Virus record (IMG/VR): IMGVR_UViG_3300048503_000032
Span: 32,001 to 96,000 of that record
Length of the DNA: 64,000 nt
Origin: a virus
Lineage: Duplodnaviria > Caudoviricetes
Strand: one strand, 5' to 3'
Position numbers and translations under genes: made by a program. Positions 18,870-36,317 of the stretch are shown here, piece after piece (positions within the stretch are counted from its first letter, which is position 1; every line of letters begins with the position of its first letter). A model generated the notes under the pieces. The model searched no databases. It was not told the DNA's origin and saw only the letters and a program-made list of their open reading frames with translations.

Positions 18870-18907
18870 TAGTTTGCTGTTGCTGAAGATGATCGATGGG
18901 GTACTAT
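18870..18907 (+). promoter_or_regulatory. late-type promoter motif, copy 2 (portal)
   Basis: TAGTTTGCTGTT-N20-TACTAT-N6-ATG(18914). Confidence 0.65.
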
Positions 18908-18913
18908 CGATCC

Positions 18914-21900: not shown

Positions 21901-22054
21901 GCAGAATAATCGCTCGGACGATATGACGCAGTATCTTCAGGACGTCAATCAGCGGTGGAAGATGGCGACGCCCGGAAAGCCTGGAGCAAAGACGTATCGG
22001 GCAGTGAAGAATCCCGGTAAGCCGGGAACACCGCCAGCGGCAAGATCGCTGTAG
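18914..22054 (+). CDS. portal protein with intein and long C-terminal extension
   Basis: Portal-like motifs (LRRFSRTPVARRAI, HPNNTES, FGLGKLE, IANAFDMSAMALG, LTPNEWR); sits between terL and protease; the ORF track starts at 18896. Confidence 0.9.
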   Translation: MFRILRSWHTAFKARMIRYFRTREVVKVFSVMHAEELRLTPIENWPLVKARQNQEIRMLRAGQNLIVDRKSWAFPYLPSCLDDQTEILTKRGFIPVTAMKRSDMFATRHPVSHRFEWQRAGRIVRSRYKGEMVEMLGQQLDVLVTPNHRVVNIQKTEGIDRLLCSSSEQIDLAGDLSTTNRRSIYALPLTAKPDKSYSMVPQSVVLTPIKRNIQDRNSLELDIPFEVWVQFLALYLAEGCCDGTTEGIEFGTGVSFEGYEEKWNKLLADFEADPFEVAERRRNNKYRVRIACAEGSEIRKDVAELLAQMPNTWTPNKFGFDCGCKALWMALFPFGHCWTKYVPDDVKNLPVEHLGAFLDWLMKTDGYSAHGDDYHQEYGTTSRRFAEDVQEILLRLGYQVGVRTKLMDCGSTFYRISFSREQYCNVRSIRRVDYDGYVYCPSVPNGIICVRRNGKIHWTGNSVQRLSMPVSKSTPFNLRRFSRTPVARRAINLIKNSVTAQAWDVRPIDGIPVDDPDEQAQRIKIAKAIFNHPNNTESHQSELEMEIEDLCIMGASATELRLTLDPKRPLKMWPMDASTVRIFVSWSESTPDLPHYAQMTGLQGERGAILFYDDEIMYIKDNPATDNPFGLGKLETAFQVVNDLLGVQRMSGMAGSDQTRKNWLWWEQPQTDEAFQIVRRHIQNELEGQAKVSLIGGMKKPDVLEITPVTIDDLLLPWHEMLIRMIANAFDMSAMALGIEHDVNRAVGDVLKDSDFRSAVVPMAKRIQEARTRKILHNKLGWYDLEYVFLSLDDPDLETKTDMNARMYSANALTPNEWRLSVGKQPLKSSFADLTQFEAMMLNQELMAQLTDQSAQKTFDRQQSAQQSAPAGGAGGEGPKPPSQGSISRGGQIESPKPMALPKFPIAGTKWNAREIAQMPVNDLAQRIDGGELPHPKKLLIDMQNQDPNILEQMSDQVKDYFKHVLDDEASEDQDEEIPQKTLDQMMKELRKRTSKQNNRSDDMTQYLQDVNQRWKMATPGKPGAKTYRAVKNPGKPGTPPAARSL
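19151..20296 (+). mobile_element. intein (382 aa) with LAGLIDADG-type homing endonuclease, in the portal
   Basis: Block A CLDDQTEILT, block B VTPNHRV, endonuclease blocks LALYLAEG and FLDWLMKTDG, C-terminal VYCPSVPNG...TGN followed by Ser+1. Confidence 0.93.
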
Positions 22055-22113: not shown

Positions 22114-23577
22114 ATGAATTACGGACTTCATCTATCCGGTGTGCAGATCGAGAGTTTGGAAGCTGACTCTCAGCATCCGAATAAGATGAAGTTCAGAGGT
22201 GTGATTTGCAGGTTGGATGAGGCCAGTTCTAAGCCGCCGAACGGCGCGCAGGGGCATCGTATCTTCGTTCCGACTGAAGTAGCCAAGCGTAGGCTGAAGA
22301 CTTTGATCGGTATGGGCTTGAACTATGCGCCGGATCTTGACAGTCATTCGCAGCGGCGCAAGGTTGGGGTGATCAATAAGGCCTGGATCGACGGTAAGGA
22401 TTTACGAGTAGAAGGACACGTATGGAAGCATGACTTCCCCGAAGCTGAGAAGGATCTGAAGCAGGCGGGGTTGGGCATGAGCATGGAGCTGGGCGATGTT
22501 CGCGTAGACGATCCGAAGGCGGATGTCTGGACATTGGATGATTTCCAGTTCCTGGGGGCGACGATATTGTGGCGGGACAGTGCTGCATATAACAGAACGC
22601 AAGCAATAGCGGCGAGAGCCGAGCAAAGGGGAGGAAGCATGTCAATCACGAAGACAAAGAGGACACCGGCTCGTACCTCGCATGGCACCGATCGCTTGGT
22701 ACAGATCGCCGCGGAAGCTGCTGCTGGGGCCGTCAAAAAGTCCAGCCGCCAGATTCTCGAAGTTCTCAAGACGCAAACAGACACCCTGGGCGAGATCACT
22801 GCCCAGAATGAGGAGTTGGAGTCGCGTATTGCGGCGCTGGAGAGCGGTCACGTTGACGCGGCCGGCGACGCGGCGAGTTCCAGTTCCAGCAGTTCCAGCG
22901 ATGGTGAGGTCGGCGCGAAGGCGGCTACATCGTCCAGTTCCAGTTCGGCCAGTTCCAGCGCCAGCAGCGATGAGGACGACATGGAGACTCGCGGCAAGGT
23001 GAAGGCCAAGGCCGCGCCAGCGTCCAGTTCGTCTTCGAGCAGCGAGGATGTCGATGCGGATGTCGACACTGGCGACTTGGAAGAGATCGAGAAGGCCAAG
23101 GGCAACACTGGCCACGCCAACGAGGACGCGGAGAATCGCGGAGACGACGGCGCTGGCGAGCTTGCCAAGAAGGTAGGCCCGACGGTCGCTGCCCAGCAGA
23201 TTAAGGCGTTGCGCAAGAAGTTACATGCCGAGCGCGACAAGACTGCGAAGCTGCGCACATCCAACGAGCAGCTTCAGGCATCGGTCGCCAAGCTGACCAA
23301 GAAGATCGACAAGGTGTCCAAGCAGGTGACCGCGGCCAGCGAGAGTCTGGGTCGCCGTTCGGTTTCGCCGGAGATCTCTGCGATGCTGGCGAAGAGCAAC
23401 ATTAGCGCGTCGGACATGTACGCGGCTGGCACCAAGCTGTCGGTTGAGGAAGTGGACGGCGTCATCAAGGCCAGCGGATTGAGCCTCAGCCCGCAGGACA
23501 GCATGGCCATGAAGAACGGCTTCCTGAAGGCCGGATTGATGGAAGATGGACGGGTAGAGCGCGGTAGCAACCGCTAA
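22114..23577 (+). CDS. prohead protease fused to scaffold
   Basis: N-terminal HK97-like protease (DSH...KVGVI...GMSME), then acidic/Ser-rich and coiled-coil region; internal GGAGG-ATG (MSITK) could give a separate scaffold product; lies between portal and capsid. Confidence 0.8.
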   Translation: MNYGLHLSGVQIESLEADSQHPNKMKFRGVICRLDEASSKPPNGAQGHRIFVPTEVAKRRLKTLIGMGLNYAPDLDSHSQRRKVGVINKAWIDGKDLRVEGHVWKHDFPEAEKDLKQAGLGMSMELGDVRVDDPKADVWTLDDFQFLGATILWRDSAAYNRTQAIAARAEQRGGSMSITKTKRTPARTSHGTDRLVQIAAEAAAGAVKKSSRQILEVLKTQTDTLGEITAQNEELESRIAALESGHVDAAGDAASSSSSSSSDGEVGAKAATSSSSSSASSSASSDEDDMETRGKVKAKAAPASSSSSSSEDVDADVDTGDLEEIEKAKGNTGHANEDAENRGDDGAGELAKKVGPTVAAQQIKALRKKLHAERDKTAKLRTSNEQLQASVAKLTKKIDKVSKQVTAASESLGRRSVSPEISAMLAKSNISASDMYAAGTKLSVEEVDGVIKASGLSLSPQDSMAMKNGFLKAGLMEDGRVERGSNR

Positions 23578-23613: not shown

Positions 23614-24672
23614 ATGAGAGGCCATGCAACATTCGTTGATCCGTCGTTAGATCAGGTCTTGTCTCAGATCGGTATGGCTGGCCGCGGAGCCGGTCGTCCG
23701 GCAGGAGGCACCATCTCGGCTGCGGCGGACTACTTGGCTCCCGGTGCTATCGAGATCAACCGATACGCGACCGAGATCGTGGATATGGTGCGCAGGCGCT
23801 TCGTGCTTGGCCAGCGCATCAATCAGACGCTGGCCACAGGCCAGCCTCACCGCTACTTCGAGCAGCTGGCCATTCCGACGGCCACCGCGACCAACCCTCG
23901 CGCTCTGGTAGCGACCGCAACACAGCCGGTTCGTCAGGAGCGCGTGGTGGCGTTGAAGGCCATCGTCGCTCAGATCAACTACGGTTTGTTCGACGTGGAG
24001 ATCAACCAGCAGCAGGGGCAGTTCGCATATCTGGAGGCCAAGGATCTCACCGACACCGTCGATGGCGTTCTGAAGCTGCATGACCAGAATCTGTGGAACG
24101 GCACCGACACCGACCTGTTCTTGCAGACCAGCACGCAGTACTTCGGCATCTCTGGTCAGATCTTGCAGGGCAACGCTTCACTGGCGGGTCTGGGCATCGC
24201 GAGCATCGCAGCCACCGGCTCGTTGGTTGACGGCTACAAGCTGGCAGTGGCGAACATGGCCAATCGGCAGGACTTCGAGGTCAGGCCGACGGCGATCTAC
24301 GGCAACCCGACGCTGTGCAACCTGTTCGACCAGGAAGTGTACGACGCTGGTCGGCAGCTGTTCTACAACCAGGTCGAGGTTCTGCCTGGTGTGGTGGTCA
24401 ACGGCATCCCCACTCAGGTGGGCATCCTGCCGCTGGTCAGCGATCCGGCGATCAACAACGTCGCGGCCGCTGGTGGACTGACTCAGTACACGGGCTTCAT
24501 CCTGTCGGACGTGGACATGATCAAGTACGCGTATCTGACCGATCCGCTGCCTCGGGTTTTCCAGCTTGGATTGCTTGGGAGCCTCGCCAGTCAATATGTC
24601 GTGGTGAAGTTTGGCGCGCCTTATGTGGAGGGCAATTTTTACGCGCACCAAGCAATTACGGCCATCCGCTGA
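23614..24672 (+). CDS. major capsid protein
   Basis: 352 aa directly after protease/scaffold; strongly biased codon usage; followed by a terminator. Confidence 0.85.
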   Translation: MRGHATFVDPSLDQVLSQIGMAGRGAGRPAGGTISAAADYLAPGAIEINRYATEIVDMVRRRFVLGQRINQTLATGQPHRYFEQLAIPTATATNPRALVATATQPVRQERVVALKAIVAQINYGLFDVEINQQQGQFAYLEAKDLTDTVDGVLKLHDQNLWNGTDTDLFLQTSTQYFGISGQILQGNASLAGLGIASIAATGSLVDGYKLAVANMANRQDFEVRPTAIYGNPTLCNLFDQEVYDAGRQLFYNQVEVLPGVVVNGIPTQVGILPLVSDPAINNVAAAGGLTQYTGFILSDVDMIKYAYLTDPLPRVFQLGLLGSLASQYVVVKFGAPYVEGNFYAHQAITAIR

Positions 24673-24695
24673 CGAGACGTAGACAGGTAACAGAT

Positions 24696-24730
24696 GAGGC
24701 TCCAGAGTAAAATCTGGAGCCTCTTTTCTT
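24696..24730 (+). terminator. intrinsic terminator
   Basis: GAGGCTCCAGA/TCTGGAGCCTC stem plus TTTTCTT. Confidence 0.85.
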
Positions 24731-24830
24731 GTATAATGGACACATGAGCTTGAGGCCCAAAGGCGCCAAGATCAAAGCGGGATTGATTGATCGGACGTCT
24801 AAATGACTGATTAGACGTGACAAATTAGCC

Positions 24831-24890
24831 AAAATAAAGACTTGACACGTTCTGCGTATAGTGGCATCATTAGGACGTGGTACAGGAGAA
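24831..24890 (+). promoter_or_regulatory. sigma70-like (early) promoter, copy 2
   Basis: AAAATAAAGAC-TTGACA-N17-CATCAT...GTGGTACAGGAGAACGGCAT. Confidence 0.7.
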
Positions 24891-24896
24891 CGGCAT

Positions 24897-25247
24897 ATGC
24901 AAATCACGCGGGACATGGTCAAGGCGGCGGTCAAGCAGAGTATGATCTTTCCGTCGGAGCACTTCGGTCTGCGCGTCGGCGAGAACTGGCCTGAGTTTGT
25001 GACGGAGGTTCTGAGGTCGGAGACGGTGCAGGCTGCATTGCTGAGCGATTTCACGCTGGCTCAGATGGTAGCAATGCAGATGGTTACGAAGACGGACGGT
25101 AAGGTGCAGCCGTTGGATGTCGCCAAGAATCAGCAGTTCGCTGAGGCGTTCCTGCGCTGGCTCTATATCGGTGTCGAGATCGGCAAGCAGGTTGCAGAGG
25201 CTGAAAAGCTGGAGGCAATGTTTGGCGGCGATCAGGTTGCGCAGTAG
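24897..25247 (+). CDS. hypothetical protein
   Basis: AGGAG RBS before MQITRD. Confidence 0.65.
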   Translation: MQITRDMVKAAVKQSMIFPSEHFGLRVGENWPEFVTEVLRSETVQAALLSDFTLAQMVAMQMVTKTDGKVQPLDVAKNQQFAEAFLRWLYIGVEIGKQVAEAEKLEAMFGGDQVAQ

Positions 25248-25544
25248 CTGTAAAAATATGTTTCGGAGGATATCCATATGTTCGACAAGATCGTTCTCGG
25301 TGTTGTGGTAGTCATTCTCGCGGCAACTTTCTTCTTCCCGGCGATTGCTCAGGTGTACGATGAGATGTTCGGCGACGGTGGGACTGCCGGTGTAGTAACG
25401 GATGCACGCGTTTCCCGTGAGGACTGAAGATGACTCCAGAATTAGCAGCACAGTGTAACGGGTTTCTGGCATGGTTCATTCCGGCGCTGGCAGTGTTGTG
25501 GGTTGCTGGGGTGCGGTTGGTTGTTTGGTTGGAGCGCAAGGATT

Positions 25545-25583
25545 GAGTTTGCTGTTGCGCTGGGGTGGCGCACAGGGCATTCT
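25545..25583 (+). promoter_or_regulatory. late-type promoter motif, copy 4 (polyvalent proteins)
   Basis: GAGTTTGCTGTT-N21-CATTCT-N6-GTG(25590). Confidence 0.6.
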
Positions 25584-25589
25584 AGTAGT

Positions 25590-28500
25590 GTGAACCTCGC
25601 TCACCTGTCTACGATCTCTACCAATGCGACGTCGGGCCTCCTGTCGAAGACACAGGGGGCTTTGGCGCGTGCTATCGAGGCATATTCCGATGATGAGGAT
25701 AGAGATTCGTCTGGGAAGTGGACGAGCGGGGATGATCGGCGCGCTCAGAGTGTTTTGAAGCCTCAGGTGGAATACGAGCAAGTTGTGAAGAACTACATGG
25801 AGGATATCCGGCAAGGTAAAGATGTCGGAGCGGTGCTGGTGAGCGATAAGGATCATTCGCATATCGTCGATGGAAATCATAAGACTGAGGCGTACTTGCG
25901 TTTGGGTAAGCAGCCACCTCGCGTGTATGCTGTGGATCGGCTTAAGACACTTATCCAGATGGGACAGGAAAATAAAACGGCTGATGAGGTAGCTGACAGT
26001 ATCGGAGAATGGCTGAAGTCTGAAGACATAAAAGCCTACTCGGAGGATGAGGAGCGCGACGATCACGGCAAGTGGTCATCGGGCGGCAGTCTGAAGCCTG
26101 CGGAGGAAGATCGCACTCAGTGGCCGCAGCACATTCAGGATCTGAAGGTTCCGCCGGCGTGGAAGGACGTTCACTACTCGGACGATCCTAAGGCGGCTCT
26201 GCTGGCGACTGGCAAGGATGCCAAGGGCCGTGATCAGCGGGTGTACTCGAAAGAGTTTCAGGACTCACAGGCGGGGCTGAAGTTCGAGCGGGTGGAAGAG
26301 CTGGGGAAGCAGATGGGATTGATCGACCAGCAGTTGATTGCCGATCGCAAGAGTGACGATGATAAAACCAAAGAGCATGCGGATGCGGCTCTGCTGGTGC
26401 GCACGATGGGAGTTCGTCCTGGCAGCGAGACGGATACCAAGGCCAAGGTACAGGCTTACGGGGCGACCACGCTCGAGGGCCGTCATGTGCGCGTTAGCAC
26501 GACGGGCAATGTCAGATTGAACTTCACCGGCAAGAAGGGCGTAGGCATCAATCTGCCGGTCGAAGACAAACAGGTCGCTGCGATGCTGGTATCGAGAAAG
26601 GCCGACGCTGGCAACAGCGGACAGATATTCCCGCATGTGTCGAACAGCAGTCTGCTCGACTATGTCCACGACAACCTGGATCATGGCGGTTTCAAGAGCA
26701 AGGACTTCAGGACGTATCTCGGCACATCGACGGCTCAGGGTCTGGTGTCATCGATGAAGGAGCCTGCTACGCCCAAGGATTATGTGAAGGCTGTTCGGTC
26801 TGTGGCGTCGGCTGTAGCGGAGAAGCTCGGGAATACTCCCGCGGTAGCGTTGTCATCCTACATAGCTCCACAGGTTTTCAGCGGATGGAAGATGCATGCT
26901 GGTGTGACAGCAGAGGCTATGGAGTTGCCTCAGGTCTACTACGGTGAGGTGTCGGATAATCAGCGCGACTTCAGGGATGTGGCTGGGCTGTTTGATAGCA
27001 GTGATACGGATGATGGCGACGACAGCGATGGCAGTGTGGAGAAGATGCTCGGTTTCGATCCTGCGAAGATGGGGATTGCAGCATCAGTTTTACGACGGTC
27101 TACTGCGAGGGAACGTACGCAGAAGAAGGCGCTGTTCGTTAAGCGTGAATGTGCGACGTTGCTGGCGGAGTTCGATGAGGAGCAGCATCCACGCGATGAG
27201 CATGGAAAGTTTACGGATGGTGGAGGCGAGACCACTACCGATCGCACCAGTTGGCACTTCGATGACTTCCATCCAGAGGATAAAATCAACGGTATACCTC
27301 TGGCGCATATGTCGCATCCGGACTTCGAGAAATATACGAATCCTGACTTGAAGGAGACACCGCTGAAGGTCGGGCCTGGTCAGCATGCCGCGGCCGGCGT
27401 GATCATGATCGAGCCTGGGAACAAGGTGTGGATTGTCACGCCGGATAAATACTTCGGCGGGTACCGCAACACATTCCCTAAGGGCACACAGGAGTCTGGG
27501 GAGGCTTTGCAGACTACGGCGGTGAGGGAGACTTATGAGGAGTCGGGACTGGTGGGAAAGATTACAGGCGTGCTGGGCGACGTTGATCGCACTACGTCAT
27601 CTACGCGTTACTATATCGGGGAGCGGGTCGGGGGTTCGCCTGCGATGGCGGGCGAGGAGACCTACGCGGTCAAGCTCCTAGACCTCAACGATCCGAAGAC
27701 GGATGAGCGGTTGCAGGATGTAATGGGGAAGACCACCAAGGATGCGGACGTGCTCAGCATGATCAGAGAGCATCTCGGCATCGAGCAGCCTGCTCAGCCT
27801 GAGGCTCCAGCGACGGGAAAGATGACGGCAGCCGACATCATGGACAAGAAGATCGGCGGATCGCAGGGGTCGAATGTTGGCGGGTTCTATAAGGGCACGG
27901 ATGGCGTGGACAGGTATGTGAAGCTGTACAACAATCCGGAGCAGGCGCATGGCGAGGTGCTGGCGAATACTATCTATCGGGATCTCAACATCCCGGCCCC
28001 ACAGTCACAGGTGTTCAGTTTGCCGAACGGCAAGGAAGCATTCGCGTCGGATATAGTTCATGGCGGAAAGACGCTAGAGCAGACTGGTGTGACTAAAGAG
28101 AATGCTCGGGAGGTGTTGAAGGGCTTCGCCGCGGATGTGCTGACTGCGAACTGGGATACGGTCGGATTGACTTACGACAACATTCTGCTGAAGGGCGGAC
28201 AGGCGTATCGTTTGGATAATGGATCGGCATTCCTGTATCGCGCGCAGGGCGGACAGAAGCCAGATGCTCTGCTTAATAAGGTGACGGAGCTGAAGGGATT
28301 TCTTAGTCCTACGGTCAACCGAGAATATGCGAAGATGGCGAAGGTAGCGGGATACACTTCGGCGGATGAGATACCCGGATTTCGTTCTCAGGTGAAAGCG
28401 ATTGCGGCGCTCGAGAAGGTTGCCGGTGGTTGGGGTAAGTATTTGGATGCGAAAGCACCGTATCTGAGCGCGAACGAAAGGTCTAAGATAGGGGATATGC

Positions 28501-28628
28501 TGACCAGTCGAACGGCCGGGTTGAAGGAAGCAGCGGGTGTGAGCGATTCATTGCATGACAAGATTAAGAATCTATTTTCAGAGGCGGAAGATTCTGTTCG
28601 GCGAGAGGTAGTCGCATGCAGTCGGTAA
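25590..28628 (+). CDS. polyvalent protein 1: ParB-like + topoisomerase IB + Nudix + kinase-like domains
   Basis: IVDGNHK (ParB-like); TGKDAKGRDQRVY, GVRPG, FTGKKG, KDFRT, LGNT, SYI (TopIB); perfect Nudix box G-x5-E-x7-RETYEESGL; YVK...GEVLAN...NWD...DNIL...LDNG (PI3/4K- or HipA-like kinase). Confidence 0.85.
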   Translation: MNLAHLSTISTNATSGLLSKTQGALARAIEAYSDDEDRDSSGKWTSGDDRRAQSVLKPQVEYEQVVKNYMEDIRQGKDVGAVLVSDKDHSHIVDGNHKTEAYLRLGKQPPRVYAVDRLKTLIQMGQENKTADEVADSIGEWLKSEDIKAYSEDEERDDHGKWSSGGSLKPAEEDRTQWPQHIQDLKVPPAWKDVHYSDDPKAALLATGKDAKGRDQRVYSKEFQDSQAGLKFERVEELGKQMGLIDQQLIADRKSDDDKTKEHADAALLVRTMGVRPGSETDTKAKVQAYGATTLEGRHVRVSTTGNVRLNFTGKKGVGINLPVEDKQVAAMLVSRKADAGNSGQIFPHVSNSSLLDYVHDNLDHGGFKSKDFRTYLGTSTAQGLVSSMKEPATPKDYVKAVRSVASAVAEKLGNTPAVALSSYIAPQVFSGWKMHAGVTAEAMELPQVYYGEVSDNQRDFRDVAGLFDSSDTDDGDDSDGSVEKMLGFDPAKMGIAASVLRRSTARERTQKKALFVKRECATLLAEFDEEQHPRDEHGKFTDGGGETTTDRTSWHFDDFHPEDKINGIPLAHMSHPDFEKYTNPDLKETPLKVGPGQHAAAGVIMIEPGNKVWIVTPDKYFGGYRNTFPKGTQESGEALQTTAVRETYEESGLVGKITGVLGDVDRTTSSTRYYIGERVGGSPAMAGEETYAVKLLDLNDPKTDERLQDVMGKTTKDADVLSMIREHLGIEQPAQPEAPATGKMTAADIMDKKIGGSQGSNVGGFYKGTDGVDRYVKLYNNPEQAHGEVLANTIYRDLNIPAPQSQVFSLPNGKEAFASDIVHGGKTLEQTGVTKENAREVLKGFAADVLTANWDTVGLTYDNILLKGGQAYRLDNGSAFLYRAQGGQKPDALLNKVTELKGFLSPTVNREYAKMAKVAGYTSADEIPGFRSQVKAIAALEKVAGGWGKYLDAKAPYLSANERSKIGDMLTSRTAGLKEAAGVSDSLHDKIKNLFSEAEDSVRREVVACSR

Positions 28629-31600
28629 TCGACAAGATCAACGCTTTACCTAACGCTGCCAAGCCTGACGGCATGTGGTCGACTCTGCGCCGCCGCAAAG
28701 AGAAGCAGTATGGGAAGACGCAGTGGAAGAAGAATCCGATCAAGCTGATACCGAAGCCGGCGGATGCTTTGGCGTTTAAGCAGTTGCCGATTCCTTTGCG
28801 TGATAAGCTGGTGAATACGGCTCCCGTCAAGAGCTTCGATCCTCGTAAGCTGGTCACCAATCAGCCGATGGTATCTCAGGCTGACTTGGCTCATTTCGCC
28901 GATCATGGCACAGACCCAGATCCGGTCATAATCCTGAAGTCGACAGACGGGTTGTATGTCCACAACGGGAACCATCGGTCTGCGCTGGCGATGATGCGGG
29001 GGCGCAAGGTGAAGGCGCGTTACATCGATCTGTCTCAGGTGCCTCAGTTGAAGGGGAAGAAGCCGGTACCTCAGGAGCGGGCTGTGGATGCTTATAAGAT
29101 GCGGGACAACGATGGGGTGTTTACCAGCGAGGAAGCGTTGGATAAAGAGGCAAGACGTGGTGCACAGCTCGTCCACACGGCGTCGTTGAGGGATTCGGCG
29201 GGGTCTGGTGCCACTGGATCTGCCCTGGGGCAACGTGCGGCTCTGTTGGCTTCTAGCATGGTGAATTTTGATGGGCTGGTGGGGGAGGTGTTTGATGCTG
29301 GTGGGCCGGGATCAGGAAGACACAAAGAAATTCCTGGTGAAGGATGGGTTACAAAAAGCGGTAAGTTCATACCTGTGAGTCACGAAGGAGCGCACGGAGA
29401 ACATTCAGACGTAGCAAAAGCTAACGGATTAGGGAATACTGTAGATAAGGCTTTTGCTAATGGGCATGTGAGAGTAGCCGAGCTGTTAGATAATGAGTGG
29501 GGGTTGAATATAGGGAAGACTACAAGCGAAGCCTGCGAACGTTTGCAGGATGTAGTTGATCGGTTACCCGATACGACGCGAGGAATTTACATTGATTATA
29601 GTTCACGAGGGGGTAATAAATCCGCGTCAGCTCATTTTACAGGTGGCAGTGCTAAGGTTAAGGCTCTGGACTGGATAGCCAAGGGAGCCAAGACTTCAGT
29701 GTTTTATAGCGCCGCGGGGGGTCATCCGTTTGATGGGGAGAAGGCGGAGGACGGTTATGGCATCGGCAACTGTAAGGAGTGCGGCAAGCCTTGGAAGAAT
29801 AAGGCACACTGGAGGATCGCGGCCGGCGGGCCTGGTAGCGGTCGTCATAAGGAGGTTGGAGGCGCGGGATGGGTTACAAAGGGCGGTAAGTTTATTCCGT
29901 TGGAATCTAAAGATGGCCATTTGTATTCTCATGTAGATGTCGCAAATAAAAACGGGCTAGGAAAGACTTATGAGGAGGCTTGGAAGAATGGCCATGTGAG
30001 GGTGTCGACAGCGATGGGTAATAAGCTGTTGGCGTTGGAGAGTGGCAAGAATACGGCGGAAGCTCGAGAGCGGTTGATAGACATAGTTCAGCGCTTACCA
30101 GACTCCAAGATTATTACGATAGAGCACTCGCAGGGTATGCCCGGAGTTCGTTCGGTCTATCGTACTTTTTATGATCCAAGTAGTAAGGAAGAGGCTTCTG
30201 ATTGGTTGGACAAGGGAGCCAAGACTTCAGTGTTTTATAGCGCCGCGGGGGGTCATCCGTTTGATGGGGAGAAGGCGGAGGACGGTTATGGCATCGGCAA
30301 CTGTAAGGAGTGCGGCAAGCCTTGGAAGAATAAGGCACACTGGAGGATCGCGGCTGGCGGCCCAGGGTCTGGTCGTCATCCGGGTGGTGGAGTAGTAAGG
30401 CAGGGCAAGATTGTGAAGTGGGGATTGACTCCGAAGAATGAGAAGATTTTTGCAAAGTATGGACTGAAGGTCAAGCTGGTAGACGCAAAGCAGCTCCAGC
30501 CGTCAGAGCATAGTAGTTGGAGACAGGCACTGTTTACTTTCATGAAGTCTCCAAGAGACCGTAAGTATCTTGACGGCTTGACTGATGGGATGCGCGCCGG
30601 GAAGTTGGTATATCCGCTTGAGGTGGAGAAGAATAAGTCGGGCGGCTATGACGTGATGGACGGCCATAATCGGTATGTGGCAGCTACAGAAGCAGGGGAG
30701 ACAAAGATTGCTGTGTTCGAGAGTCCAGTAGAAGCAAAGCAAGACAAGTTTATGGAAGAGAATTTAGATTTGCAGAAGGTAGTGAAGGCGTCGGCCATTT
30801 CAGCTGGAGGCCCAGGCTCGGGCTGGACTACGGAGAACGGCCATGTCTCGAATCTGACTCCGCAGGACAAGGGTCAGAAGCTCCAGAAGATGGGTTTCTT
30901 TCATACGGATCAGGGTAACTACGGCGTCGGTAAGGAAGTATGGCAGCACAAGGACACCGGCACTCAGGTGCATGTGTCGAAGTACAACGCGCCCAACCAG
31001 CCGAACCTGAGAAAGTTCGAGGTCTATAAGTCGAACGGCGACAAGATTTTCAATGGGCATCAGTTCAGCAAGGCGGTTGAGAAGATGCAGAACACTCCGA
31101 TGCAGAAGTCGGAGATGAAGCCTGACACTGGGCCGAAGACTAGCCTGCCTAGCGGAGTGAAGCAGTATGATCCTACTGTGAAGCCGTCGGCGCTTGAGCA
31201 GTTGAATGTACCGAAGGGTGGTGTGAAGACGACAGAGCCATCGATTCCAGCGTCTGAGAAGAATGCTGTGTTGCAGGATGCTGGCTTCCATGTCGCATAT
31301 ACGAGTAAGTTGGTAGAGACTGGACAGCCGACAGATGTTTGGGTTCATTCTACGACTCAGGATGCGGTGCATGTGATTGCGACCGATCCTACTCACAGCA
31401 GTTGGAAATATATACCGGCGAACGGATCGCCATCGACGGGCAAGATGGCTGACGACTTGAAGCAGGCCATTGCCAATGGAGGCAAGCCAGCAGCAGTTGA
31501 TAAGCCGACATCGTCTACGAAGACATCGACTCCCGCAGCACCGAAGACGCCGGATATCATTCCGGTGACAAAGGAATGGTGGGACAAGCTGGACAAGGCT

Positions 31601-33010
31601 GCATCGGATAACTGGGTCAAGGGCGGATCGTCAAAAATGACTGGGTACTCGGATAAAGATAAGCCGAATGACTATCATAAAGATGGTACGGGCTGGTATG
31701 GCAAAGTAGCATCTGCGATGGGGGTTCCGTTTAGTTCAGTAAAAGATGCAGCACACAGGATTGATAGTTTGCAGTCGTCTGGTAAGACGGCGGAGGGCGG
31801 TAACAAGATTGGAGCTTGGAGTCAGTCGGTGGTCAATAATGTAGGACAGGCTGGCAGTGTTCATCTTGGCACGGCGATTGAGTATGCGCATGCGCAGCAG
31901 TGGATCAAAGAGAATGGGATGGCCAACAGCGGTAATATGTCTCGCGGGTACTCGGGAACTGGGAAGACGATAGATAAGGCTGTTGGTTATGTGAAGTCGC
32001 AGGATCAGATTACGCTGTTGAATACTCTGGTGCATATGCAGCCTAAGGGCTTCGAGGTCAGTCTTCCGGTGAACGGAGTAGAGGGGTTTTCGATCAAGTC
32101 TGGCTGGTCTAAGTTTACGAACGAGAAAGGTGCGATGGTACGCCTGTCCAACGTAGATCCGAAGAATGTGATTTCAGGTTGGGGCATGGGCGGTATGGTG
32201 GATAGTTATGACGGGGAGAAGGAATGGCTCTTGGCCTTTAAGGATTCCAGTATGCCTATCAGGACGTTCGCAGGCGGAAACGCGAAAGTAGAGATTATTA
32301 AGGGAGCAGTGATGTCGGCGAAGGACAAGATCTTCTGGGCTACGCTGGTTCAGCTGAAGAAGTCCGGTTGGAACTGGACAGTGAAGGGCAAGAAGATCAC
32401 CATCACGCCGCCGGGATGGTTCACCGACAGGAAGAATATCGTGCTTGACCCGGATCAGATGGCGGCGGCATCGGTGTCGTCTTCATCGGAGGAAGCGGCT
32501 GTGGATAATCTGTCGCCGGGTACCATTGCACGCGAGATGATTCGTTCTAAGGCTCTGGGCGTATCGTCGGCTGCTTACAAGCTGGCCGGCGTTACATCAT
32601 TCCAAGGCTTGCCGATCAGCATCGAGAATAAGAAGGGCGATGTGCGCAGCGGTGTGGCGGCGGACGGTAGCAAGTGGACAATCAAGATGCCATTCGACTA
32701 CGGATACATCAAGGGCACCAAGGGAGCCGACGGTCAGCCGGTGGATTGTTTCATTGGCCCTTTGAAAGACTGCAAGTTTGCATATATCGTTCATCAGACG
32801 AAGTTTGATAAGAGCGGTTATGATGAAGACAAGACGATGCTCGGATGGCCGTCGGCGGAGCGAGCTGAGAAAGCGTACAGATCTGCGTACAATAACGTCG
32901 ATTTGTTCTACTCTATGAGTGTGATCCCGATGCATGAGTTCATCAAGAAAGTGCTGAGCACAAAGAACCACAAGCGGCCGGGTAAGATCCACGCAGAGGT
33001 AGCAGCATGA
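28616..33010 (+). CDS. polyvalent protein 2: ParB-like domains, repeated modules, ART-like domain, C-terminal inorganic pyrophosphatase-like domain
   Basis: NGNHR and MDGHNR (ParB-like); four AGGPGSG tags; SRGY...GFS...EKEWLL (R-S-E ART-like); GLPISIENKKG...DYGYIKGTKGADG..VDCFIG...DEDKTMLG (polyvalent-protein InPase domain). Confidence 0.8.
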   Translation: MQSVIDKINALPNAAKPDGMWSTLRRRKEKQYGKTQWKKNPIKLIPKPADALAFKQLPIPLRDKLVNTAPVKSFDPRKLVTNQPMVSQADLAHFADHGTDPDPVIILKSTDGLYVHNGNHRSALAMMRGRKVKARYIDLSQVPQLKGKKPVPQERAVDAYKMRDNDGVFTSEEALDKEARRGAQLVHTASLRDSAGSGATGSALGQRAALLASSMVNFDGLVGEVFDAGGPGSGRHKEIPGEGWVTKSGKFIPVSHEGAHGEHSDVAKANGLGNTVDKAFANGHVRVAELLDNEWGLNIGKTTSEACERLQDVVDRLPDTTRGIYIDYSSRGGNKSASAHFTGGSAKVKALDWIAKGAKTSVFYSAAGGHPFDGEKAEDGYGIGNCKECGKPWKNKAHWRIAAGGPGSGRHKEVGGAGWVTKGGKFIPLESKDGHLYSHVDVANKNGLGKTYEEAWKNGHVRVSTAMGNKLLALESGKNTAEARERLIDIVQRLPDSKIITIEHSQGMPGVRSVYRTFYDPSSKEEASDWLDKGAKTSVFYSAAGGHPFDGEKAEDGYGIGNCKECGKPWKNKAHWRIAAGGPGSGRHPGGGVVRQGKIVKWGLTPKNEKIFAKYGLKVKLVDAKQLQPSEHSSWRQALFTFMKSPRDRKYLDGLTDGMRAGKLVYPLEVEKNKSGGYDVMDGHNRYVAATEAGETKIAVFESPVEAKQDKFMEENLDLQKVVKASAISAGGPGSGWTTENGHVSNLTPQDKGQKLQKMGFFHTDQGNYGVGKEVWQHKDTGTQVHVSKYNAPNQPNLRKFEVYKSNGDKIFNGHQFSKAVEKMQNTPMQKSEMKPDTGPKTSLPSGVKQYDPTVKPSALEQLNVPKGGVKTTEPSIPASEKNAVLQDAGFHVAYTSKLVETGQPTDVWVHSTTQDAVHVIATDPTHSSWKYIPANGSPSTGKMADDLKQAIANGGKPAAVDKPTSSTKTSTPAAPKTPDIIPVTKEWWDKLDKAASDNWVKGGSSKMTGYSDKDKPNDYHKDGTGWYGKVASAMGVPFSSVKDAAHRIDSLQSSGKTAEGGNKIGAWSQSVVNNVGQAGSVHLGTAIEYAHAQQWIKENGMANSGNMSRGYSGTGKTIDKAVGYVKSQDQITLLNTLVHMQPKGFEVSLPVNGVEGFSIKSGWSKFTNEKGAMVRLSNVDPKNVISGWGMGGMVDSYDGEKEWLLAFKDSSMPIRTFAGGNAKVEIIKGAVMSAKDKIFWATLVQLKKSGWNWTVKGKKITITPPGWFTDRKNIVLDPDQMAAASVSSSSEEAAVDNLSPGTIAREMIRSKALGVSSAAYKLAGVTSFQGLPISIENKKGDVRSGVAADGSKWTIKMPFDYGYIKGTKGADGQPVDCFIGPLKDCKFAYIVHQTKFDKSGYDEDKTMLGWPSAERAEKAYRSAYNNVDLFYSMSVIPMHEFIKKVLSTKNHKRPGKIHAEVAA
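29680..30354 (+). repeat. exact 144-bp direct repeat (29680-29823 and 30211-30354)
   Basis: Identical DNA encoding KGAKTSVFYSAAGGHPF...CKECGKPWKNKAHWRIAA, offset by 531 nt. Confidence 0.95.
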
Positions 33011-33828
33011 GTGTTCCAGGATTCACGCCGTGTTATATATTCCCCAGCGAGTTGCAGGCGTATGGGTTGCCGAGCCCTGCTGCGCAGCCTGACATCCAGA
33101 ACCTTGTCTATCTGGCGTCCAGCATAATCGACGAGGCTTGCGGAAGAGTTGACGGAGATGGCAACGGATCGCTGGTGTTCACGACGTACACGCAGCGTAT
33201 GCTCATGCAGACGAGGAATCGGAATTTGTGTCTGCTGCCGATGAAGCCGATCGTGCCGGTTACACAGGATCAGATCGACGCGCTGACAGCTCAGGCATCG
33301 GCCAGCGGCAGCGGAGGAAATTATTATCTGACGGGAAATCTACAGGCGAGTACGTTCATCAGCCCGATGGGGACGCTGTCGGGTATTGTGGGGGCCAGCG
33401 GAAGGTATGGATACACGCGGCAGGATATGTCGGTTGCTTATCCTGACTTGTTTGCATTCATCAACCCACTCAATCTTGTGACCATGTTCGGTGGGCCGGC
33501 TCCGTGGGTTGCTGTAGACATCACCAACACCGACTACGATTACAAGACAGGTGAGGTATGGGTGCCGGCGGGACTTCAGCTTCAGCGGTACTCGGAGATT
33601 CTGATTGTATACAACTGCGGGTTCGATCCTAACAAAATGCCTCCGGGCATCAAGCTGGCGACGGCGTGCTTAGTCAAAAATGCGCTGGCAAAGGGGGATG
33701 GGACGACTGCACTGACTAGCATGAGCTTGAGTCGTAGCGGAGCTTCGTTTGGTTTCATGCCTGGATCATTGATTGATCCTACGGTTGATGGATTGCTACT
33801 TCCGTGGAAGAAAATCATGGCGTACTAG
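33007..33828 (+). CDS. head-tail adaptor/connector
   Basis: ASSIIDEACGR, YNCGF..MPPGIKLATACLV and LLLPWK typical of gp6/gp15-like adaptors; synteny. Confidence 0.7.
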   Translation: MSVPGFTPCYIFPSELQAYGLPSPAAQPDIQNLVYLASSIIDEACGRVDGDGNGSLVFTTYTQRMLMQTRNRNLCLLPMKPIVPVTQDQIDALTAQASASGSGGNYYLTGNLQASTFISPMGTLSGIVGASGRYGYTRQDMSVAYPDLFAFINPLNLVTMFGGPAPWVAVDITNTDYDYKTGEVWVPAGLQLQRYSEILIVYNCGFDPNKMPPGIKLATACLVKNALAKGDGTTALTSMSLSRSGASFGFMPGSLIDPTVDGLLLPWKKIMAY

Positions 33829-33842
33829 GGAAGTTGACTGTA

Positions 33843-34322
33843 ATGGGGTACTCGGGGTTGAATATCGGCTTCGGCATTCAGCGGCTGGTGGACGCTCAGC
33901 AGCGTTACACCCAGGCTTCGCGTGTTCCGATATTCATGCGGCTGCGCAACTTCGTTCCGCCGACCAACGAGTTGTATGCTCAGCTCGGGTACACGATTAC
34001 GCCGGGAGTTGGACAGACAGGAACGTCGGATATCCTGATTGCTCCGCCTCCGTCGACTCGGCTGGTATCGATGCACAATATCGGGATGTCTTCAGGGAAG
34101 CTGAGGTTCGGGGCGAGGTATTTCATAATCTCAGGGACGTTTGTGAACGCTCAGCAGGCAGCTTTAGGAGTATCTACGCCTGAGCATCTGTGGATGTCAC
34201 CACAGTTCGTAGGCATTTATGCGTATGGGGTTTTGTGGTCGGTAGAACAATACTCTTCAGAAGAGTTGGGCGGAGTGCCGGTTTTGTGGATTTTGACTTG
34301 CAACGCGAACGAAATTAAGTAG
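33843..34322 (+). CDS. putative head closure protein
   Basis: Position after the adaptor; size. Confidence 0.5.
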   Translation: MGYSGLNIGFGIQRLVDAQQRYTQASRVPIFMRLRNFVPPTNELYAQLGYTITPGVGQTGTSDILIAPPPSTRLVSMHNIGMSSGKLRFGARYFIISGTFVNAQQAALGVSTPEHLWMSPQFVGIYAYGVLWSVEQYSSEELGGVPVLWILTCNANEIK

Positions 34323-34325
34323 GGG

Positions 34326-34337
34326 TAGTTCGCTGTT
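34326..34337 (+). promoter_or_regulatory. late-type promoter motif, copy 5
   Basis: TAGTTCGCTGTT in an intergenic gap; the -10 box is ambiguous. Confidence 0.5.
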
Positions 34338-34397
34338 GCGATCAGGTCGGATGGGATTCTAGTATAACGCGAGTGATCAAAGTACTGAGGTGAAGAG

Positions 34398-34976
34398 ATG
34401 AATCTGAGCAATGCGATGGCGCTGCGAAGTGAAGGCAGACAGATTCAGGCTGGCGCTATGCCGAAGGCGGATGCCAAGTACACGCCTGTTCATGCTGGCG
34501 CGCACGATCATCTCACCAAGATTGGTTACATGCACACTGGCAACAAGACCCGCGGCGGGATCACGACCAGCAATTATTTCAAGTCCAAGATGGGCAACAC
34601 CAGAAACATCGCTGTTCAGAAGGATGGATCGTTCATCAAGACATCGAAGACGGCCAAGGGAACGCGCCGGTCGCGTGGTAAGCTCGACGCATGTGGTCTG
34701 AAGATGAAGGCTTCGGTGACTGTCGATGCTGGAGGCCCAGGGTCTGGTCGTCATGCTGGTGGGAGCAGTGGGCCGAAGGCGAACTATAACGGGAACCAGA
34801 AGGCTTTGGATATCATGCATAAGGGCATGGTTTCTTCAGGGTATACTTATAACAGGTCATCTCCGTCCGAGACAGTTGAGGGTGCGCATTTTCACGACTA
34901 CAAGGGCAAGGACGGTATGACCAGTGCTGGAATCCGCGAGCATTCGGACGGTAAGCTCGAGTTTTTATCGAAGTAG
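34398..34976 (+). CDS. basic two-module protein carrying the VDA-GGPGSGRH tag
   Basis: GAGG RBS; shares its tag with polyvalent protein 2. Confidence 0.7.
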   Translation: MNLSNAMALRSEGRQIQAGAMPKADAKYTPVHAGAHDHLTKIGYMHTGNKTRGGITTSNYFKSKMGNTRNIAVQKDGSFIKTSKTAKGTRRSRGKLDACGLKMKASVTVDAGGPGSGRHAGGSSGPKANYNGNQKALDIMHKGMVSSGYTYNRSSPSETVEGAHFHDYKGKDGMTSAGIREHSDGKLEFLSK

Positions 34977-34985
34977 AGGAGACTT

Positions 34986-35255
34986 ATGGCGAACAGGACA
35001 GTGATGATCCGCAGACCGATGCTTCACGGTAATACGACGCGCATGGTGCGTGCGACTGTTCTGTCGGAGAGCGATGGCATGCTCCGTGTGGTTGAGCAGG
35101 GAAGCAATAAGCCGATCACGGTGAAGGCATCGGAGACGATGGATGCTCCCAAGACATTCGGTACGCGGCTGGCGATGCAAAGCGGCGTTGTCATCCAGAG
35201 ATCGTTACCGGATAATCCCAACAGTCTCTCGCGTATCATCGAGGGCAGAGGTTAG
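34986..35255 (+). CDS. hypothetical protein
   Basis: GAGGAG RBS. Confidence 0.6.
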   Translation: MANRTVMIRRPMLHGNTTRMVRATVLSESDGMLRVVEQGSNKPITVKASETMDAPKTFGTRLAMQSGVVIQRSLPDNPNSLSRIIEGRG

Positions 35256-35303
35256 GCTTCACCCGGTCACCCGGCCGGCAAATCTGACGAGGAGAACTAC
35301 ATC

Positions 35304-35567
35304 ATGGCAAGCACAACTTTGATTGCGAATCTGAAGACGGTTATCGCCAATGGCCCAAGCACGGTGACCAAGGCGAACGCCATTGCACAGGCCGGGCCGA
35401 TCACGGACTATGTCGGCATGTGCAACAGCGTTCTGACCAACCTGGACGAGGCCGAGGTCAAGTTGAACGGCGTCGCTGGCGTGGCAGGATTGCTGGCGCT
35501 GACCGATCCGACCACCGACGCAGCGAACTACACGCTGCTGAGCAACGTGCTGGCATCTCTCAGCTAA
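35304..35567 (+). CDS. hypothetical, possibly virion, protein
   Basis: GAGGAG RBS; biased codons like the capsid gene. Confidence 0.6.
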   Translation: MASTTLIANLKTVIANGPSTVTKANAIAQAGPITDYVGMCNSVLTNLDEAEVKLNGVAGVAGLLALTDPTTDAANYTLLSNVLASLS

Positions 35568-35583
35568 TCCTGGGAGGCCGGCG

Positions 35584-36105
35584 ATGAGTGTGACGGCGAC
35601 GATATCGGGGATAGACGAGCTGGTTGCGAGTCTGTCTGCGGTACCGTCGCTTGTTACGTCGGGCGTGAAGACGACGGACGAGTTGAACTACATCAAGGCT
35701 CTGGTATGGGACATGGGTTACGTCCATCGCAAGATAAACCCTGGCCCTAAGACATTGTGGTCAGTCAACGCACTAGGTGAGCAGAAGGTGCTGACCATCT
35801 ATGCGCCGACTGGTTTCATCCGTGTGCAGCGGAACAAGTATCTGGCGATCTTGAAGGACGAGTTCATCAAGGCGAATTTTGCTGCTAGGCCGATTTCAGA
35901 GTGGGGTATGCTGGCAGACAAGATGATGCGGAACGCGGCCTCACGCTGTGCTACGGTGATCTCGGCTGGCGCTCCGGTTGACAAGGGCGATCTGAAGGAC
36001 AGTATCGAGGCTGCGTTGCCGGGGGATTCTGAGTTGAGCGGCAGCGGGTACGGCCCATACGGAACGATGGATCTAGACATGAGCAGTTTTCTGGAGGAGT
36101 CATGA
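35584..36105 (+). CDS. tail completion/neck protein (HK97 gp10-like)
   Basis: ISGIDELVASL N-terminus and APVDKGDLKDSI motif. Confidence 0.65.
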   Translation: MSVTATISGIDELVASLSAVPSLVTSGVKTTDELNYIKALVWDMGYVHRKINPGPKTLWSVNALGEQKVLTIYAPTGFIRVQRNKYLAILKDEFIKANFAARPISEWGMLADKMMRNAASRCATVISAGAPVDKGDLKDSIEAALPGDSELSGSGYGPYGTMDLDMSSFLEES

Positions 36106-36317
36106 ATCAGGGTCAGTTGATTGAGGCGGGGAAGCATGTAGTCGTGGCGAAGAGTGTGATTCCTGTCCATGCCGGTCAGCACAAGATGTTGACTGATGAG
36201 GGATTCCAGCATGTGCGCAACACCGGCGACCACAGCACTTATGTCAGTCCCAAGGGCGGTATCAAGATTCGGACACGCGGCAACGGTTTCATGACGGCTG
36301 TACCCAACAAGAAGTAG
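36102..36317 (+). CDS. HicA-like small protein
   Basis: KMLTDEGFQHVRNTGDHSTYVSP resembles HicA L-x3-GF-x3-R-x2-GSH-x2-Y. Confidence 0.5.
   Translation: MNQGQLIEAGKHVVVAKSVIPVHAGQHKMLTDEGFQHVRNTGDHSTYVSPKGGIKIRTRGNGFMTAVPNKK

Follow-up and report, generated by a model that had tools for sequence, protein, structure and literature searches.

Two giant head-region proteins of an uncultured phage carry tagged module junctions that a scaffold-fused assemblin-fold protease may cut

Why would a phage place two giant strings of enzyme modules among its head genes? The question is raised by the 106.8-kb genome of an uncultured phage, of which we analysed a stretch of 64,000 nucleotides (the window), where both proteins are encoded among virion (head) genes, downstream of the capsid gene and upstream of that for the head-tail adaptor (Table 1). 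Several unrelated effector-type domains, the head-gene location and the signature domain InPase (PF18823) make them resemble polyvalent proteins, multi-enzyme polypeptides encoded near head genes that likewise carry InPase, ParB-like and NUDIX modules and for which packaging and delivery with the DNA and some processing are predicted (PMC5512222). Injected phage proteins act before phage gene expression, which makes them prime candidates for anti-defence and host takeover functions, and they are hard to recognise by sequence. No cultured relative was found with the DNA of the region, with the capsid protein, with a part of polyprotein 2 or with a tagged protein of another phage (G001), a single weak mycobacteriophage match excepted. 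The answer that we favour, with moderate confidence, is that both proteins are cargo polyproteins cut after Φ-x-Ala (Φ, hydrophobic) by the product of gene 22114-23577 during prohead maturation, and that their modules are packaged and injected.

Table 1. Features of the head-gene region of the window (positions as in the window; a slash marks the border that follows a triplet)
Feature	Position	Strand	Remarks
Portal protein	18896-22054	+	Pfam Phage_portal, E 2.6e-31; head-module context
Protease-scaffold fusion	22114-23577	+	between portal and capsid; residue S132 in 496-aa numbering
Assemblin/gp21-fold domain (N-terminal)	about 22174-22635	+	predicted by AF2 model and fold search
AIAA/R, candidate release site	22603-22614	+	end of protease domain; possible analogue of the herpesvirus R-site
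Major capsid protein	23614-24672	+	ten related loci, 39-84% identity
ISA/AADY, candidate maturation site	23713-23721	+	triplet at leader/body border in relatives
Polyprotein 1	25590-28628	+	1012 aa; GTG start
Tags of polyprotein 1	25683-25721, 26037-26075, 27171-27212	+	
Polyprotein 2	28616-33010	+	Pfam InPase and weak ParB_N
Tags of polyprotein 2	29300-29323, 29825-29848, 30356-30379, 30806-30829	+	
Head-tail adaptor	33007-33828	+	phrog_442 head-tail adaptor, E 1.5e-9; end of polyprotein-holding head block
Small tagged protein	34398-34976	+	leader ending IQA/G; internal VDA/GGPGSGRH at 34731-34754
Small protein	36102-36317	+	starts MNQGQLIEA/G

The start of polyprotein 1, a GTG at 25590, agrees with the gene call on the record. 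A 31-aa leader is followed by a tag, a small DGNH (possibly ParB-like) module, a second tag, topoisomerase IB, an HPRD tag and a NUDIX domain with a kinase-like C-terminus; Pfam recognises Topoisom_I (E 2.5e-24), Top1B_N_bact and NUDIX (E 3e-11). The three junctions read IEA/YSDDEDRDSSGKW, IKA/YSEDEERDDHGKW and LLA/EFDEEQHPRDEHGKF, and module exchange in this protein breaks at the tags. Polyprotein 2 runs from a ParB-like module through two modules each headed by GGPGSGRH, A and its duplicate B, to a third GGPGSGRH in front of a ParB_N-like module with a weak Pfam match, and then through GGPGSGW, about 590 aa and InPase (aa 1320-1443, E 3.1e-35) to its end at ...KIHA/EVAA. Here the tagged junctions are FDA/GGPGSGRH, IAA/GGPGSGRH (twice) and ISA/GGPGSGW, and tags are absent upstream of the ParB-like module and upstream of InPase. 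Neither polyprotein contains an embedded zincin peptidase or a conserved HExxH, as judged by Pfam domains and the motif itself, and no stand-alone homologues of module A were found at near lengths. The two small proteins have PVHAGxH in common, and homologous small proteins encoded 3' of the adaptor gene in relatives combine a leader of 11-35 aa, Φ-x-[ASC] and then GGPGSGRH. Taken as a sequence pattern, the leaders on polyproteins and small proteins are 8-35 aa long and end in Φ-x-[ASC].

Throughout the whole genome, the tags are confined to polyprotein 1, polyprotein 2 and the 34398-34976 product. All eight were found where a preliminary description of this DNA had placed them, and each is preceded by hydrophobic-x-Ala, with the Ala one residue earlier at one of them; the triplets which that description listed at the capsid N-terminus (ISA), at the N-termini of 34398 (IQA) and 36102 (IEA) and at the polyprotein end (IHA) are present as well. 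Among phages with the same protease family, Φ-x-[ASCG] stands at 26 of 27 distinct GGPGSG junctions, and it stands at 16 of 19 distinct YSxDExRDxxGKW/HPRD junctions, the other three having Ala one residue earlier, against a background of 5.65%; these counts do not represent independent events, as junctions are paralogous within a genome and many contigs are related. Judged by these sequences, the triplet directly upstream of the tags is under selection far beyond chance. Tag codons differ freely at synonymous sites, and therefore selection acts on the protein. The two tags are unrelated and have only the hydrophobic-x-Ala triplet in common, and one and the same module is preceded by SLAA/YSDDEARDDHGKW in L003 and by RIAA/GGPGSGRH in the window.

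Taken over whole proteins, the triplet does not stand out. It had been described as dense in linkers, in the scaffold and at the portal N-terminus, and none of these three claims found support. For [IVLF]-x-A the two polyproteins have observed-to-expected ratios of 1.04 and 0.95, which is chance, and the portal has 0.84, with no overall enrichment; the 1.71 of the scaffold gene (19 versus 11.1) is not significant and is also reached by unrelated genes of the same genome; and a comparison of portal N-termini across relatives revealed no conserved Φ-x-A triplet. Non-tag triplets are kept in homologues in 28 of 51 cases, about the general identity, and no further sites were singled out. With some 45 copies of Φ-x-A in the two polyproteins, a density expected by chance, the triplet by itself is not enough to specify a cut. 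Candidate identities of GGPGSGRH as a double-glycine bacteriocin-type leader, a lipobox or a Walker-A NTPase were rejected on spacing or key residues, with R-H in the tag in place of the K-[ST] of a P-loop; a literature search for GGPGSG returned engineered linkers and adenylate-kinase P-loops, and one for LHPRD nothing relevant.

A tagless copy of the triplet lies at the capsid N-terminus. All 20 distinct relatives read Φ-x-A/[AS]A[DT][YFA] at this position, between a variable, unconserved leader of 11-40 aa and a conserved body; ISA/AADY is, on this pattern, the likely capsid maturation site, and the conservation could also be structural. Since the polyprotein joints carry the same triplet as this putative maturation site, a herpesvirus-like head protease probably cuts there too. 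The string AADFLGTGA in an ORF at 2-517 was judged a chance match.

The gene that the preliminary description had proposed for the head protease, 22114-23577, encodes by fold a capsid-maturation protease. Its most likely start, 22114, matches the starts of its relatives, and its C-terminal part is Ser/acid-rich and coiled-coil, with coiled-coil and scaffold-like matches. The AF2 model (pLDDT 89) aligns in VIA-align with T4 gp21 (5jbl) at Z 11.2 and an rmsd of 2.9 over 124 residues and with herpesvirus proteases at Z 8-10.7, against at most 6.8 for unrelated folds, and Foldseek assigns the assemblin-fold match a probability of 1.00. S47, H87 and S132 (in GMSME) are invariant in 51 protease sequences, of which 48 also have H57 and 50 have E134; the putative catalytic Ser and His would be among these residues. 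The identification comes from fold search only: a PDB-sequence search with 22114-23577 gave no protease match, and the N-domain and its 51 relatives matched nothing in Pfam or PHROG, nor the curated families S21, S77, S78, S78_2 and S80. The N-domain is a family of the assemblin fold, 979 clusters in size, that is not yet filed in curated families. At its end, [IL]-A-A is found in 13 of 13 closer relatives, and most of the 51 sequences are rich in Ala-Ala at this position; this conservation may be structural, because AIAA forms the last strand of the modelled fold. Herpesvirus proteases reportedly follow the consensus Val/Leu/Ile-x-Ala/Ser.

In the mechanism that we propose, both giant ORFs, together with two or more of their small neighbours, would encode capsid cargo of the polyvalent-protein kind. 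Upstream of each module or small protein, a junction cassette would consist of hydrophobic-x-Ala and one of two interchangeable hydrophilic tags, YSxDExRDxxGKW (with an HPRDxxGKF variant) or GGPGSG[RW]H. The scaffold-fused assemblin-fold serine protease probably cuts after the Ala during prohead maturation, and it would also cut the capsid protein at ISA/AADY and perhaps itself at its domain end, IAA/R. The products would be the ParB-like module, topoisomerase IB, the NUDIX-kinase, the inorganic-pyrophosphatase-like module and further modules, and the released enzymes would remain inside the head and reach the host along with the DNA. We infer the cleavage, the protease responsible for it and the retention of tags on the products; packaging and injection are suggested by gene position and by analogy with published work on polyvalent, T4 and phiKZ-like proteins. 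Since the tags recur in phages whose preceding residues differ, they are less likely to determine protease specificity than to act as an exposed element for presentation or loading.

Each of the two tags is also found in many other phages. The residue that precedes a tag, the presumptive P1, is uniform within a genome and different between genomes, with K, F or E replacing Ala in a lineage-specific manner; the co-variation of tag and cleavage motif that had been proposed for related phages is thus borne out. Before GGPGSG, the residue is K at 30/30 junctions in G001, which alone holds about 30 tagged junctions, and at 13/13 in another genome, F at 5/5 and 4/4, E at 5/5 (G008) and A at 5/5 in the window and 7/8 in G009. 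Before the HPRD tag it is likewise uniform per contig, K in L171/L163, L179 and L124 and E in L185 and L141. G008 carries both tags and has E directly before all five GGPGSG copies and 1-2 residues before the aromatic start of its HPRD tags. The K, E and A classes correspond to known P1 residues: the HK97 protease (S78) cuts at K103/S104 (PMC10275583), T4 gp21 cuts after L/I-x-E (PMC9026906), and Ala225 is the last residue of mature pseudorabies virus assemblin (PMC4498786). The proteases encoded by K-type contigs are of the S78 or S78_2 kind, and the window's protease family is absent from these contigs; a one-to-one assignment of P1 class to Pfam protease family is too simple, as S78-like domains occur in K-type contigs and also in one E-type contig (G018), and only partial identifications were obtained for the proteases of G008, which is E-type, and of the F-type phages. 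A wider reading, which we offer tentatively and at somewhat less than even chances, is that one junction grammar is common to many phage groups, with GGPGSGRH and [WFY]xExxHPRDxxG[KR][FW] starting every cargo module after the P3-P1 of the phage's own protease (A, K, E, F). If so, cargo modules could move between phages by a change of one or two residues, and any phage's sequence would reveal its set of packaged effectors and the specificity of its protease.

The same junctions might also serve without being cut. Φ-x-[AKFE] plus tag could be a docking motif for prohead loading via a lineage-specific scaffold, portal or shell interior, the polyproteins staying intact or losing the first leader alone, and such a role would suit a tag that is conserved far beyond the need of a protease site, is common to phages with different preceding residues and follows leaders as short as five residues (MKFIK/GGPGSGRH), in polyproteins where Φ-x-A is not rare elsewhere. 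We nevertheless think it unlikely, for it leaves unexplained both the tagless triplet at the capsid N-terminal border of 20/20 relatives and the match of K, E and A to the P1 of HK97, T4 and herpesvirus proteases. Still more doubtful are tags that act as flexible inter-domain linkers and recombination joints for cassette shuffling, with the preceding residues inherited and no proteolysis. Module gain, loss and re-ordering do break at tags, which are Gly/Ser/Pro-rich or highly charged, but tag DNA with synonymous differences is a poor substrate for homologous recombination, and tags that follow short leaders on single-domain proteins have nothing to link. P3 and P1 are fixed (30/30 K) while the contexts upstream of P3 vary, which argues for selection and not inheritance.

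Cutting at the joints could also be the work of another enzyme or another time, whether by a host protease, by autoproteolysis or after injection into the next cell. Post-injection or autoproteolytic processing of polyvalent proteins has been proposed by Iyer et al. 2017 (PMC5512222), the identification of the F-type protease is poor, and a search of the F-type phages for an encoded Prp found none. Set against this, the polyproteins contain no peptidase domain or conserved HExxH, the presence of the triplet at the capsid N-terminus too speaks for the maturation protease and P1 tracks phage lineage, and we regard such an origin of the cuts as quite improbable.

Read as cargo of a head protease, the window's polyproteins differ from the polyvalent proteins with embedded zincins in having no embedded peptidase of their own; Iyer et al. 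2017 propose embedded zincin metallopeptidases as the main processors and place assemblin-like peptidases only at the C-termini of some polyvalent proteins, and neither junction tags nor a lineage-specific preceding residue appear in the portions available to us (PMC5512222). The likeness to T4 lies in a short N-terminal leader that ends in an apparent protease consensus, as on IPI-III and the injected enzyme Alt, which gp21 processes, and in the apparent recurrence of this consensus on the capsid protein, here as the 20/20 pattern at a putative maturation site (PMC9026906); by model, gp21 and the window protease have the same fold. In T4, P1 is Glu and the targeting information lies in the removed leader (PMC9026906), whereas the window has Ala as its predicted P1, unconserved leaders, a conserved element on the prime side, which would be retained, and a chain of many modules in one ORF. 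If tag and site act as proposed, they could serve to load foreign proteins into phage heads, much as the T4 capsid targeting sequence does. In phiKZ, 201phi2-1 and SPN3US, a single prohead protease processes numerous head and ejection proteins at A-x-E, some of them several times (PMC10052503, PMC5694885). The window would be similar in that one protease is predicted to act on several proteins at a three-residue motif, and it differs in that the phiKZ-type cuts, with Glu as P1, mostly remove N-terminal propeptides of separately encoded proteins; the available parts of the sources report no shared junction tag (PMC10052503, PMC5694885).

If the tag-plus-site rule holds, the capsid cargo of uncultured phages could be recognised from sequence by a simple test, the specificity of a prohead protease could be read off in the same way, and a scaffold-fused assemblin-fold family that apparently cuts after Ala would add to the phage-herpesvirus link. 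As in the herpesvirus UL26-type arrangement, which has R and M sites and a mature protease ending in Ala (PMC4498786), gene 22114-23577 appears to combine, in a single ORF, a serine protease of assemblin fold at the N-terminus with a scaffold at the C-terminus. Unlike its herpesvirus counterparts, it belongs to a bacterial virus and has no detectable sequence similarity to them, and effector polyproteins, for which herpesviruses have no such processing, are among its candidate substrates.

The tagged polyproteins lie in the head block (table) of a 106.8-kb IMG/VR contig that is ~91% complete, carries nearly all of its genes on the + strand and includes the window as bases 32001-96000; DNA and protein searches found no cultured relative. 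All tags listed in the preliminary description were present at their positions, and when every predicted protein of the genome was scanned with regular expressions, they occurred only in the genes of polyproteins 1 and 2 and in 34398-34976. The GTG start of polyprotein 1 at 25590 is consistent with the 1012-aa protein on record, which contains topoisomerase IB (E 2.5e-24) and NUDIX (E 3e-11) domains, and polyprotein 2 combines an InPase domain (PF18823, E 3e-35), a weak ParB_N match and several modules without a family, among them a tandemly duplicated 175-aa module. The two copies, A and B (29300-30355), are identical over their last ~53 residues (KTSVFYSAAGGHPFDGEKAEDGYGIGNCKECGKPWKNKAHWRIAA plus tag), suggesting that the duplication is recent or that gene conversion has occurred. 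As outlined in PMC5512222, phage-type polyvalent proteins share this architecture and many have a zincin peptidase; the window polyproteins, in contrast, have none, since their sole HExxH lacks conservation across the duplicated modules.

Features of the head block (window positions)
Feature	Position	Strand	Remark
Portal	18896-22054	+	Pfam Phage_portal
Protease-scaffold gene, 488/496 aa	22114/22087-23577	+	between portal and capsid
Capsid	23614-24672	+	head block
Terminator, promoter-like sequences, three small ORFs	24672-25590		between capsid and polyprotein 1
Polyprotein 1	25590-28628	+	head block
Polyprotein 2	28616-33010	+	head block
Head-tail adaptor	33007-33828	+	head block
Small genes after adaptor	incl. 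34398-34976 and 36102-36317	+	follow the adaptor

GGPGSGRH (29300-30829, 34731-34754) is similar to GGPGSGKGT, the Walker A loop of adenylate kinases, but with R-H where a P-loop has K-[ST]; a phosphate- or DNA-binding role is conceivable. Within the polyprotein 1 leader, 29 nt (25623-25651, encoding TNATSGLLSKT) have a 93% identical copy (E 4e-6) at a second site of the same genome (L002, G000:C1:10091-10119), inside an SbcD/Mre11-like nuclease gene (INATSGLLAKT).

Relatives for junction counts were gathered via the capsid protein and via the protease. Within the clade that has the window's protease, [IVLFM]-x-[ASCG] precedes 26/27 distinct GGPGSG junctions, with Ala in 21, and 16/19 distinct junctions of the other tag (YSxDExRDxxGKW, with an HPRD variant), against a background of 5.65%; the three exceptions among the latter have Ala one residue earlier. 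Codons inside the tags vary freely, and the tags are the break points of module gain, loss and re-ordering. The two tags are interchangeable: the same module is preceded by SLAA/YSDDEARDDHGKW (slash, putative cut) in the related locus L003 and by RIAA/GGPGSGRH in the window. Small single-domain proteins of relatives open with an 11-35 residue leader that ends in the hydrophobic-x-Ala triplet (phi-x-A) and is followed by GGPGSGRH, and window genes 34398 and 36102 start similarly. Among capsid proteins, 20/20 distinct sequences read phi-x-A/[AS]A[DT][YFA] behind an unconserved leader of 11-40 residues. A 1038-aa protein (L010:4726-7842) encoded ahead of the capsid gene in a distant capsid relative has PBECR1, MuF and Acb1 (anti-CBASS) domains and begins MFNFSAANPWHDRAGRF, a degenerate HPRD-type tag.

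Co-variation among related phages had been put forward as a check of the cleavage scheme, and it was found: the residue before the tag (P1) is uniform per contig and differs between contigs. A GGPGSGRH codon-pattern scan of IMG/VR returned 54 loci with 112 in-frame tags. K precedes the tag 30/30 times in a 113.7-kb viral contig (G001), where P3, two residues further upstream, is always V/I/F/L and the neighbours otherwise vary, and K precedes GGPGSGRH 13/13 times in another contig; F does so in two contigs (5/5 and 4/4) and A in G009 (7/8) and the window (5/5), while E stands directly before the GGPGSG tags of contig G008 (5/5). Among the matches listed, the HPRD..GRF tag was more widespread still and behaved alike, preceded by K in loci L171/L163, L179 and L124 and by E in L185 and L141; G008 has both tags, with E 1-2 residues ahead of the aromatic start of its HPRD tags. 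G001 (L083-L088) holds ~30 phi-x-K/GG.GSGR junctions across at least 17 proteins, many of which open with a leader of either of two families (..NPFS..L.P.LS.YPV.K or ..EQW...I.K), and a 504-aa protein adjoining its Mu-type portal has a C-terminal Peptidase_S78_2 domain.

In the product of 22114-23577, the first 190 residues are highly conserved and the remainder is Ser/acid-rich and coiled-coil. An exhaustive HMMER search gathered 979 cluster representatives (50% identity) of the N-domain family, which has no PHROG model and no Pfam match in 51 sampled sequences; in these, S47, H87 and S132 (in G-M-S-M-E) are invariant and H57 occurs in 48/51. The AlphaFold model of the domain (pLDDT 89) gave only T4 gp21 and herpesvirus assemblins as top Foldseek matches (probability 1.00), and VIA-align Z scores of 11.2 to 5jbl and 8-10.7 to herpesvirus proteases, the next unrelated fold reaching 6.8. 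From this fold match and the coiled-coil remainder, the gene is a predicted maturation protease that carries its scaffold in the same ORF, as herpesvirus UL26 does (PMC4498786). In 13/13 closer relatives the final residues of the domain are [IL]-A-A, which could be a release site or just the last strand of the fold. ESM Atlas neighbours of the N-domain (22114-22650; P0009-P0158) are mostly labelled Acidobacteriota, only a lead to the host, and in distant relatives (L006-L012, L028) a DUF6582 domain precedes the same protease-scaffold gene.

The most economical reading of these sequences is that a protease site and, directly behind it, a universal tag would stand at the start of each cargo module, and that the sites would be cut during head maturation; we infer cleavage, retention of the tag, packaging and injection alike. 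Such a scheme would extend the T4 CTS/gp21 and phiKZ/SPN3US systems, in a variant form, to polyvalent proteins. The main rival is that triplet and tag together form an uncleaved docking motif. K-type contigs (classed by P1) encode S78_2 or S78 proteases, and the window's protease family is absent from the K-, F- and E-type genomes that are complete or nearly so. Among the contigs compared, which belong to a limited number of clades, three of the four P1 classes match published P1 residues: HK97 cuts at K103/S104 (PMC10275583), T4 gp21 cleaves after L/I-x-E (PMC9026906) and the C-terminal residue of pseudorabies virus assemblin is Ala (PMC4498786). At Pfam level the mapping of P1 class to protease family is not clean, since one E-type contig carries an S78-like domain, a PHROG match is the sole identification of the F-type protease, and the protease of G008 (E-type) had no match in any family search.

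The triplet had also been described as dense in linkers, in the scaffold and at the portal N-terminus, which the counts did not support: there is no overall enrichment, with observed/expected ratios of 1.04 and 0.95 in the polyproteins, 0.84 in the portal and 1.71 in the scaffold gene, a value below the 1.9-2.3 that other genes attain. Retention of non-tag triplets in homologues (28/51) is likewise unremarkable. It follows that the triplet by itself is not sufficient to define a protease site, to which exposure or the tag must contribute.

Elsewhere in the head block, the portal protein is 1052 aa long and its Pfam portal domain begins only at residue 491; a LAGLIDADG_3 domain at residues 361-437 suggests an intein or homing-endonuclease insertion within the long N-terminal extension. 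The region downstream of the capsid gene has a hairpin-plus-T terminator at ~24700-24730 and two sigma-70-like promoters (TATAAT; TTGACA...TATAGT), and two of its three small ORFs resemble membrane peptides.
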